Source of the DNA: Escherichia coli
GTDB taxonomy: Bacteria; Pseudomonadota; Gammaproteobacteria; Enterobacterales; Enterobacteriaceae
Length of the DNA: 64,000 nt
Reading direction: 5' to 3' (one strand)
Assembly (NCBI RefSeq): GCF_003334385.1
Contig: NZ_QOWN01000015.1
Below are positions 5,866 to 6,153 of this stretch, piece after piece (position 1 is the first letter of the stretch; each line of letters begins with the position of its first letter). The notes beneath the pieces were generated by a model. That model did no database searches. It was not told the origin of the DNA and worked only from the letters and a program-made list of their open reading frames with translations. Made by a program: the position numbers and the translations under genes.

Positions 5866-6153
5866 ATGCGCGCGATCGGTAAATTGCCTAAAGGCGTGTT
5901 GATACTGGAATTTATCGGAATGATGCTACTGGCGGTGGCGCTGCTGTCGGTAAGCGACTCCCTGTTGCTGCCTGAGCCATTTTCTCGGCCAGAAGTGCAG
6001 ATTCTGATGATTTTTCTCGGTGTTTTGCTCATGCTTCCCGCTGCGGTGGTGGTTATTCTTCAGGTGGCAAAACGTCTTGCCCCACAGCTGATGAACCGTC
6101 CACCGCAATATTCACGTTCAGAAAGAGAAAAAGATAATGACGCCAACCATTGA
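5866..6153 (+). CDS. ybjC: Small membrane protein YbjC (DUF1418), 95 aa; first gene of the ybjC-nfsA-rimK-ybjN cluster
   Basis: 95-aa ORF with two hydrophobic segments; its 3' end overlaps the nfsA start by 17 nt. Confidence 0.85.
   Translation: MRAIGKLPKGVLILEFIGMMLLAVALLSVSDSLLLPEPFSRPEVQILMIFLGVLLMLPAAVVVILQVAKRLAPQLMNRPPQYSRSEREKDNDANH

Follow-up and report, generated by a model that had tools for sequence, protein, structure and literature searches.

The gene junctions in the 64,000-nt stretch of Escherichia coli DNA analysed here (the window) are ordinary operon architecture, and we consider it very likely that nfsA, whose start codon lies inside the 3′ end of ybjC, is initiated mainly independently, with coupling to ybjC playing at most a minor part. 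The open, A/G-rich initiation region that nfsA carries within the 3′ end of ybjC would drive mainly de novo initiation, and coupling to ybjC would add at most a minor share of nfsA translation. The gene is clinically relevant, as its loss gives nitrofuran resistance, and the fact that its translation signals are self-contained in the last ~20 nt of ybjC is mildly useful in judging the translational polarity of mutations and insertions in ybjC.

Genes and junctions of the window

From its first position to position 55711, the window is colinear with E. coli K-12 MG1655 (NC_000913.3, from 885048), with 15 mismatches over window 1-55711; beyond this point the sequence diverges. Window coordinates are MG1655 coordinates minus 885047, and genes were taken from the curated K-12 RefSeq annotation. 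The colinear part holds 50 annotated CDSs, all of which are intact and translate cleanly, as determined by a script with which every adjacent pair was also measured. Gene content and order are the same as in K-12 (15 differences in 55.7 kb), and the ybjC-nfsA junction is the same as in the K-12 operon. In addition, megablast of positions 5800-7000 returned matches in 5,420 of the 5,426 complete E. coli genomes. Both ybjC and nfsA are genuine protein-coding genes, and the other CDSs of the window match those of RefSeq K-12.

The first gene of the ybjC-nfsA-rimK-ybjN unit, ybjC (5866-6153, plus strand), encodes a 95-aa DUF1418 small membrane protein with two hydrophobic segments, and in the window strain it carries one substitution relative to MG1655, at 5966 (TCG to TTG). 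YbjC has a full-length Pfam match to DUF1418 (E = 2.6e-41), and its ORF is 92-96 codons long in 44 species, with a dN/dS of ~0.13-0.5 against the E. coli sequence. Judged by this conservation, ybjC is a real gene for a small membrane protein that evolves fast, yet under purifying selection; that it might be a spurious ORF is rejected on the full-length DUF1418 match together with purifying selection across the 44 species. The second gene, nfsA (6137-6859, plus strand), encodes a 240-aa NADPH nitroreductase. The locus is the same as the SoxS/MarA/Rob-regulated ybjC-nfsA(-rimK-ybjN) operon of E. coli, with an identical junction. It has been reported that a single SoxS class I promoter controls both ybjC and nfsA (Paterson et al. 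2002, cited via PMC11936445), and the pair has been described as one operon with a SoxS-dependent promoter (Paterson et al. 2002, cited via PMC10953011).

In six pairs of the window, the downstream gene starts at or before the upstream stop on the same strand (spacings of -17, -4, -4, -4, -1, and -1). The longest of these overlaps, between ybjC and nfsA, occupies 6137-6153 on the plus strand (-17, ATGACGCCAACCATTGA), and the ybjC stop TGA at 6151-6153 falls within the nfsA codons for Ile5-Glu6 (ATT GAA). Spacings of -4 with the sequence ATGA, all on the plus strand, are found at potH/potI (12037-12040), ybjQ/amiD (19866-19869), and macA/macB (35300-35303). On the minus strand, ybjJ/ybjI (1082-1086, TGATG) and artQ/artM (16485-16489, TAATG) have a spacing of -1, with base 1084 and base 16487, respectively, common to both genes. 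Two convergent pairs overlap in their stop codons, amiD/ybjS at 20693-20696 (TTAG) and ybjD/ybjX at 33081-33084 (TTAA). A preliminary description of this DNA had listed the 17-nt overlap, the three 4-nt overlaps, the 1-nt ybjJ/ybjI overlap, and the two convergent pairs sharing their last 4 bp, and each of these was recovered exactly by measurement. It had also placed the start of artQ on the artM stop; the overlap is indeed a single base, but the order is the reverse, as the minus-strand arrangement artP-I-Q-M puts the artM start on the artQ stop, with artM as the downstream gene. We also note the abutting pair cydD/cydC (44146-44151, minus strand, TAAATG, spacing 0), which belongs to the same junction class and was absent from that earlier list.

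Translation initiation of nfsA

The start of nfsA at 6137 is experimentally confirmed. N-terminal proteomics or ribosome profiling had been proposed as the check on the chosen starts, and for nfsA the published N-terminal peptide, INRI-seq, and Ribo-RET data all give position 6137. TRAINSPOTTER N-terminomics recovered the Met-retaining nascent N-terminal peptide MTPTIELICGHR, with an inferred start at NC_000913:891184-891186 (PMC13245402, Table S1), which corresponds to window 6137-6139, the nfsA ATG. At this codon, INRI-seq gave a mean of 89.8 CPM (74-107) in vitro, and Ribo-RET gave a peak of 20.5 in vivo (PMC9825163, Table S2, whose Ribo-RET values come from Meydan et al.). From the in-frame stop upstream (6092) as far as residue 43, the ORF offers no start codon other than the ATG at 6137.

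Initiation at nfsA is autonomous in vitro. In INRI-seq, a purified translation system is supplied with retapamulin and with isolated synthetic mRNAs that each carry 30 nt of upstream sequence and 153 nt of CDS (PMC9825163). Because the upstream gene is never translated in this system, an INRI-seq peak reports initiation that is independent of coupling, and the nfsA signal ranked 10th among 49 window genes. Two quantities were calculated for each window gene: the energy of the SD/anti-SD duplex and the free energy needed to open the region from -18 to +12 around the start (opening cost). The translation initiation region of nfsA (6120-6136, plus strand) is a purine-rich, unstructured stretch, AGAAAGAGAAAAAGATA, located in the last codons of ybjC. 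Its SD match is weak (-2.9 kcal/mol, rank 42 of 50 window genes), and its opening cost of 3.6 kcal/mol is the lowest of the 50 (median 9.4), rising to 6.2 kcal/mol in the context of the INRI construct. Opening cost in the INRI context was negatively correlated with the INRI signal per template (Spearman rho = -0.36, p = 0.011), and start regions were costlier to open in the INRI-silent genes of the window (median 12.4 vs. 9.3, p = 0.02). In vivo data from Burkhardt et al. (PMC5318159) give nfsA a high TE of 1.57, an aSD of -2.88, and a low DMS Gini of 0.324 over -20 to +40. We infer that in vivo, too, translation of nfsA in E. coli is independent of ybjC translation.

On the other hand, the overlap might give rise to positive coupling, in which ribosomes ending at the ybjC TGA supply a substantial share of NfsA synthesis, either by sliding back from the TGA, 14 nt past the nfsA AUG, or through ribosome passage that keeps the start open. 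We regard this as unlikely. The two genes are co-transcribed (PMC11936445), and coupling is known at spacings besides -4 and -1 (PMC12548453). However, a spacing of -17 is in the range where reinitiation is sharply lost and lies outside the range considered predictive. In reporter studies, coupling was best from -4 to +3, was strongly reduced from -4 to -25, and was absent at -25 (Brown & Wade 2025, PMC12548453), and spacings of -8 to +10 have been treated as predictive of termination-reinitiation (Huber et al. 2023, PMC10666635). Spacings of this efficient kind are found at potHI, ybjQ-amiD, macAB, ybjJI, artQM, and cydDC, and not at ybjC/nfsA. Coupling through RNA unfolding involves a sequestered start, but the nfsA start region is the most open of the 50 genes, so unfolding is unneeded. 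Nor is nfsA a downstream gene that cannot initiate alone, given the strong INRI-seq peak of its isolated start region and its position as first cistron in 36 species (see below).

The supply of terminating ribosomes from ybjC also appears to be small. The ybjC start gave a weak INRI-seq peak (mean 7.7 CPM, range 5.6-8.9) and no Ribo-RET peak in vivo (PMC9825163), so that the in vivo signal is a peak at nfsA against 0 at ybjC. The computed opening cost indicates that the ybjC start region is structured, and ybjC was below the coverage filter in the data of Burkhardt et al. (PMC5318159). A weak and structured start would yield few terminating ribosomes for a gene with a TE of 1.57.

Known systems offer a comparison for mainly independent initiation of nfsA. 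Like the synthetic overlaps of Tian & Salis (-8, -11, -14, -17, and others, cited in PMC12548453), ybjC/nfsA has a spacing of -17 and a start region wholly inside the upstream CDS. In the synthetic series coupling falls with overlap length; unlike that series, the nfsA start region is autonomous and open, with a high TE. In this, nfsA is comparable to internal cistrons that initiate independently, bioF of bioBF being an uncoupled example (PMC6728339).

We also looked for RNA features at the junction. No Rfam family matched positions 5600-6500 at E <= 1. A whole-sequence duplex calculation for SdsN137 and nfsA yielded unrealistic structures, with 56% of shuffled sRNAs equally good, and a local 16x16-nt scan with SdsN137 placed the best duplex inside ybjC, at 5932-5945, with none notable at the overlap.

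The 17-nt overlap across the Enterobacteriaceae

We compared nfsA loci from 80 Enterobacteriaceae species, with ybjC presence scored by tblastn with YbjC. The gene is present in 44 of the 80 species and absent in 36. A few frame-2 ORFs in Enterobacter and Pluralibacter resembled 17-nt overlaps in ORF and k-mer searches, and were found to be spurious by tblastn with YbjC. Wherever ybjC is present, in 44 of 44 species, the overlap measures exactly 17 nt, because the ybjC stop lies in the conserved nfsA codons for Ile5-Glu/Asp6. This stop is built by nfsA codons 5-6: ATT GAN yields TGA, and two genomes of the Citrobacter amalonaticus group have ATT AAY and hence TAA. Substitutions within the overlap are nearly all at nfsA third positions, and are synonymous for NfsA (MTPTI) and non-synonymous for YbjC, whose tails include NDANH, DDADH, DDSNH, DDTDH, and NESDH. 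The NfsA N-terminus is therefore the constrained reading, and the last five residues of YbjC drift. The 17-nt overlap is probably a passive consequence of this constraint, as the conserved codons for Ile5-Glu/Asp6 of NfsA create the first stop in the ybjC frame.

The species without ybjC include Enterobacter, Lelliottia, Leclercia, Silvania, Kosakonia, Yokenella, Pluralibacter gergoviae, Citrobacter sedlakii, and others, and in these grxA is located ~185 nt upstream of nfsA. Alignment shows that they retain the promoter-proximal part of the grxA-ybjC intergenic region, and next to it the final ~20-30 nt that precede the nfsA ATG; in C. sedlakii, for example, ybjC appears to be cleanly deleted with its 3′ tail retained. 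What is kept in front of the ATG is the purine-rich initiation region of nfsA, which reads AGAAAGAGAAAAAGATA in E. coli and AAAGAGAGAC as the consensus of the ybjC-less species. As this start region persists without ybjC, nfsA is the first cistron in many relatives from essentially the same start region. Its openness is alike in species with and without ybjC (6.35 vs. 6.11 kcal/mol, p = 0.48). Species that have ybjC carry a weaker nfsA SD than the ybjC-less ones (-2.9 vs. -4.9 kcal/mol, p = 3e-4, a comparison that ignores kinship), which could reflect a small contribution of coupling or only the constraint that ybjC coding places on the SD.

The T that forms the ybjC stop is invariant in 44/44 genomes with ybjC, compared to 30/36 without it (Fisher p = 0.006, again with kinship ignored). 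Together with the weaker SD of the species that have ybjC and the absolute conservation of their overlap length, this restriction of the invariant T to genomes with ybjC is what the comparative data offer in favor of a substantial supply of ribosomes from ybjC. Against such a supply stand the 36 species in which nfsA is the first cistron from the same start region. The invariant T, and the retention of the stop as TAA in the two species with a changed nfsA codon 6, hint at selection on the stop position. Together with the SD difference, these signs could mean that the ending of ybjC 14 nt into nfsA was selected as a tuning device, and that lineages deleting ybjC compensated by a stronger nfsA SD, but we consider this very unlikely. 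In such a scheme, translation of ybjC would modulate nfsA either positively, by back-sliding reinitiation, or negatively, by occlusion of the start region.

A negative effect, in which ribosomes in the 3′ end of ybjC occlude the nfsA start and the fixed stop limits their intrusion, is in our view extremely improbable. The nfsA start region is located wholly within ybjC codons, and the conserved stop position with its invariant T would be explained; read from the sequence, ybjC would run 13 codons further without its stop, resulting in a 56-nt overlap. However, occlusion would be rare, because ybjC initiation appears weak, and conservation of the stop is more simply explained by the NfsA N-terminus and by ATT being the common Ile codon, also found in 30 of the 36 ybjC-less species.

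The remaining junctions of the window

All of the junctions are ordinary and already known E. coli operon architecture, annotated in every E. coli genome, and the -4 and -1 overlap classes and their tie to translational coupling are textbook material. Overlaps occur in 6 of the 34 co-directional pairs of the window (18%), five of them of the -4 or -1 type, and overlapping pairs make up ~15% in most prokaryotic groups (Huber et al. 2019, PMC6728339). Spacings of -4 or -1 account for 5 of the 13 co-directional pairs spaced from -20 to +20 (binomial p = 2.6e-4 against uniform spacing). Across prokaryotes, the enriched spacings are -4, -1, and, less so, -8 (PMC12548453; PMC10666635). The excess in the window reflects this known genome-wide bias rather than a peculiarity of the window, which is typical in this respect. 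In addition, E. coli gene pairs that lie close together are 4.5-fold enriched in heteromeric complexes (Huber et al. 2023, PMC10666635). PotHI, ArtQM, MacAB, and CydDC are subunits of single complexes, and their close spacing fits this enrichment.

The convergent pairs amiD/ybjS (TTAG) and ybjD/ybjX (TTAA) belong to the class of convergent 4-bp stop overlaps; on direct reading, only TTAA, TTAG, CTAA, and CTAG hold two opposed stops offset by one base. Such overlaps bear neither on translational coupling nor on operon membership. All that follows from them is that the 3′ end of each gene, with any terminator it has, is located within the gene opposite. Scans for terminators near both junctions gave weak matches only, in about the number obtained with shuffled sequence.

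The preliminary description had taken the overlaps as indicating translational coupling and as supporting its operon calls and its choice of start codons. With respect to operons, the co-directional overlaps do fit the annotated operons, and at -4 and -1 junctions there would be no room for a promoter-terminator pair; the convergent pairs are irrelevant to the question. With respect to coupling, the idea is plausible for the -4 and -1 junctions and least supported for ybjC/nfsA, where initiation appears to be autonomous, and an overlap alone is insufficient, as bioBF illustrates: it was the one uncoupled pair among five tested E. coli -4 pairs, none of which is in the window (PMC6728339). For annotation, the lesson is that an overlap is good evidence for co-transcription and not evidence for coupling, and that independent initiation is the better reading where a long overlap, such as one of -17, comes with a start region that is open and autonomous.

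At the other junctions, coupling is plausible (potHI, ybjQ-amiD, macAB, ybjJI, artQM, and cydDC), and most so for macB, amiD, and artM. The geometry of canonical -4/-1 termination-reinitiation pairs is matched exactly by potH/potI, ybjQ/amiD, macA/macB, ybjJ/ybjI, and artQ/artM, whose SD motifs, as in the canonical pairs, sit inside the upstream gene. At spacings of -4, -1, or 0, a terminating ribosome could reinitiate at the next start site or unfold it. Unlike strictly dependent canonical pairs, the isolated start regions of ybjI, cydC, and potI initiate in vitro, that of potI weakly (INRI-seq means of 26.8, 25.2, and 9.8 CPM, respectively; PMC9825163), which makes strict dependence unlikely for these genes; the cydC SD is strong (-10.3 kcal/mol). 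The isolated start regions of artM, amiD, and macB gave 0 CPM in five of five INRI-seq replicates (PMC9825163), and macB was silent despite abundant template. With an opening cost of 17.1 kcal/mol, the artM start region ranks second in the window for structure, and those of macB (12.1-17.1 kcal/mol) and amiD (11.1-11.6 kcal/mol) are likewise among the more structured. These predicted structures are compatible with coupling by RNA unfolding, and the three genes may well depend on upstream translation. Their silence was rejected as proof of coupling and is only suggestive, because the base rate is high: 12 of the 49 window genes were also silent, comprising three of the six downstream genes at these junctions and 9 of the other 43 (Fisher p = 0.15).

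With respect to the start codons, the annotated starts hold, and those of nfsA, ybjI, and potI were detected experimentally. The argument from overlap to start codon is largely circular, because the overlap follows from ORF geometry: for nfsA, amiD, macB, and artM, the overlapping ATG is the 5′-most possible start, with an in-frame stop 5-14 codons upstream. Some of the overlaps could still be annotation artefacts, produced by a wrong downstream start or by ybjC not being a real gene. This is scarcely probable, although alternative starts can be named, upstream and in frame for potI (GTG at 11995) and ybjI (TTG at 1087, one codon upstream), and later in the gene for macB (TTG at residue 4) and artM (ATG at residue 9). 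In addition, the N-terminomics (PMC13245402) and INRI-seq/Ribo-RET (PMC9825163) tables yielded no experimental support for the starts of amiD, macB, and artM. Against an artefact, the start of nfsA is proven, YbjC matches DUF1418 over its full length and is under purifying selection in 44 species, the annotated starts of potI and ybjI give INRI-seq peaks, and the ATGs of nfsA, amiD, macB, and artM are already the 5′-most in their ORFs. The table of novel INRI-seq initiation sites lists no alternative in-frame start for nfsA, potI, amiD, macB, or artM (PMC9825163). Finally, the annotated amiD ATG precedes a lipoprotein-type signal sequence, and later starts would cut the AmiD signal peptide, the YbjI DxDxT motif, or the MacB nucleotide-binding domain.

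ybjC and nfsA across and within species

ybjC (5866-6153), which overlaps the start of nfsA (6137-6859), is missing at 36 of the 80 nfsA loci that we compared, one per Enterobacteriaceae species, and these loci are spread over many genera (among them L013, L017, L018, L026-L031 and L033-L038). At the loci without ybjC, nfsA is the first gene past the conserved promoter region. The number of genera lacking the gene, together with Citrobacter sedlakii (L033), where ybjC appears to have been recently and cleanly deleted inside an otherwise ybjC-positive genus, suggests that ybjC has been lost repeatedly.

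Variation is also found within E. coli. Several complete genomes carry IS1 or IS5-family elements (IS903B, ISEc35) inside the ybjC-nfsA-rimK stretch, and the insertion splits the match of those genomes into two pieces. Nitrofurantoin resistance commonly arises through disruption of nfsA. On a smaller scale, comparison of the window with the K-12 ybjC oligo in the supplement of INRI-seq, an assay of in vitro initiation on isolated start regions, revealed a one-base difference at 5966, within ybjC, which is also present in the list of mismatches to MG1655 and changes codon 34 from TCG (Ser) in K-12 to TTG (Leu) in the window.

Scanned locally for pairing with the sRNA SdsN137, the ybjC-nfsA mRNA gave its strongest candidate duplex away from the nfsA start: it would lie within ybjC, pairing window 5932-5945 with sRNA nt 22-35, at a predicted -19.9 kcal/mol.

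Start codons and close junctions elsewhere in the window

INRI-seq gave no peak at the annotated ybjJ start (2292), and the Shine-Dalgarno (SD) strength computed for this start region is nearly nil (-0.3 kcal/mol). An out-of-frame ATG located 22 nt downstream (NC_000913:887316, window ~2269) is listed in the INRI-seq table of novel initiation sites, with detection in five replicates. For ybjI, an alternative in-frame TTG lies at 1087, one codon upstream of the ATG, and its use as the start would turn the 1-nt overlap with ybjJ into a 4-nt TTGA overlap. potI likewise has a possible alternative in-frame GTG at 11995, 14 codons upstream of its ATG.

The cydD/cydC pair, whose product is a heterodimeric ABC transporter, belongs to the same class of close junctions as the pairs listed in the preliminary description, where it was missing. 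In the sequence, the two genes abut on the minus strand as TAAATG (44146-44151), with a spacing of zero, and a strong SD for cydC (GGAGGAG) sits within cydD.

The segment beyond serS

The match of the window to MG1655 ends directly past serS, and 55712-64000 diverges: in place of the dmsABC of MG1655, the window carries what read as phage genes, those of the tail sheath, the tail tube, the tape measure and late control D, a set typical of P2-like phages. When 55674-64000 was searched against 5,426 complete E. coli genomes, only 16 matched it over 80% or more of its length. Given this small number and the divergence past serS, the source of the window is therefore a K-12-like strain other than MG1655.
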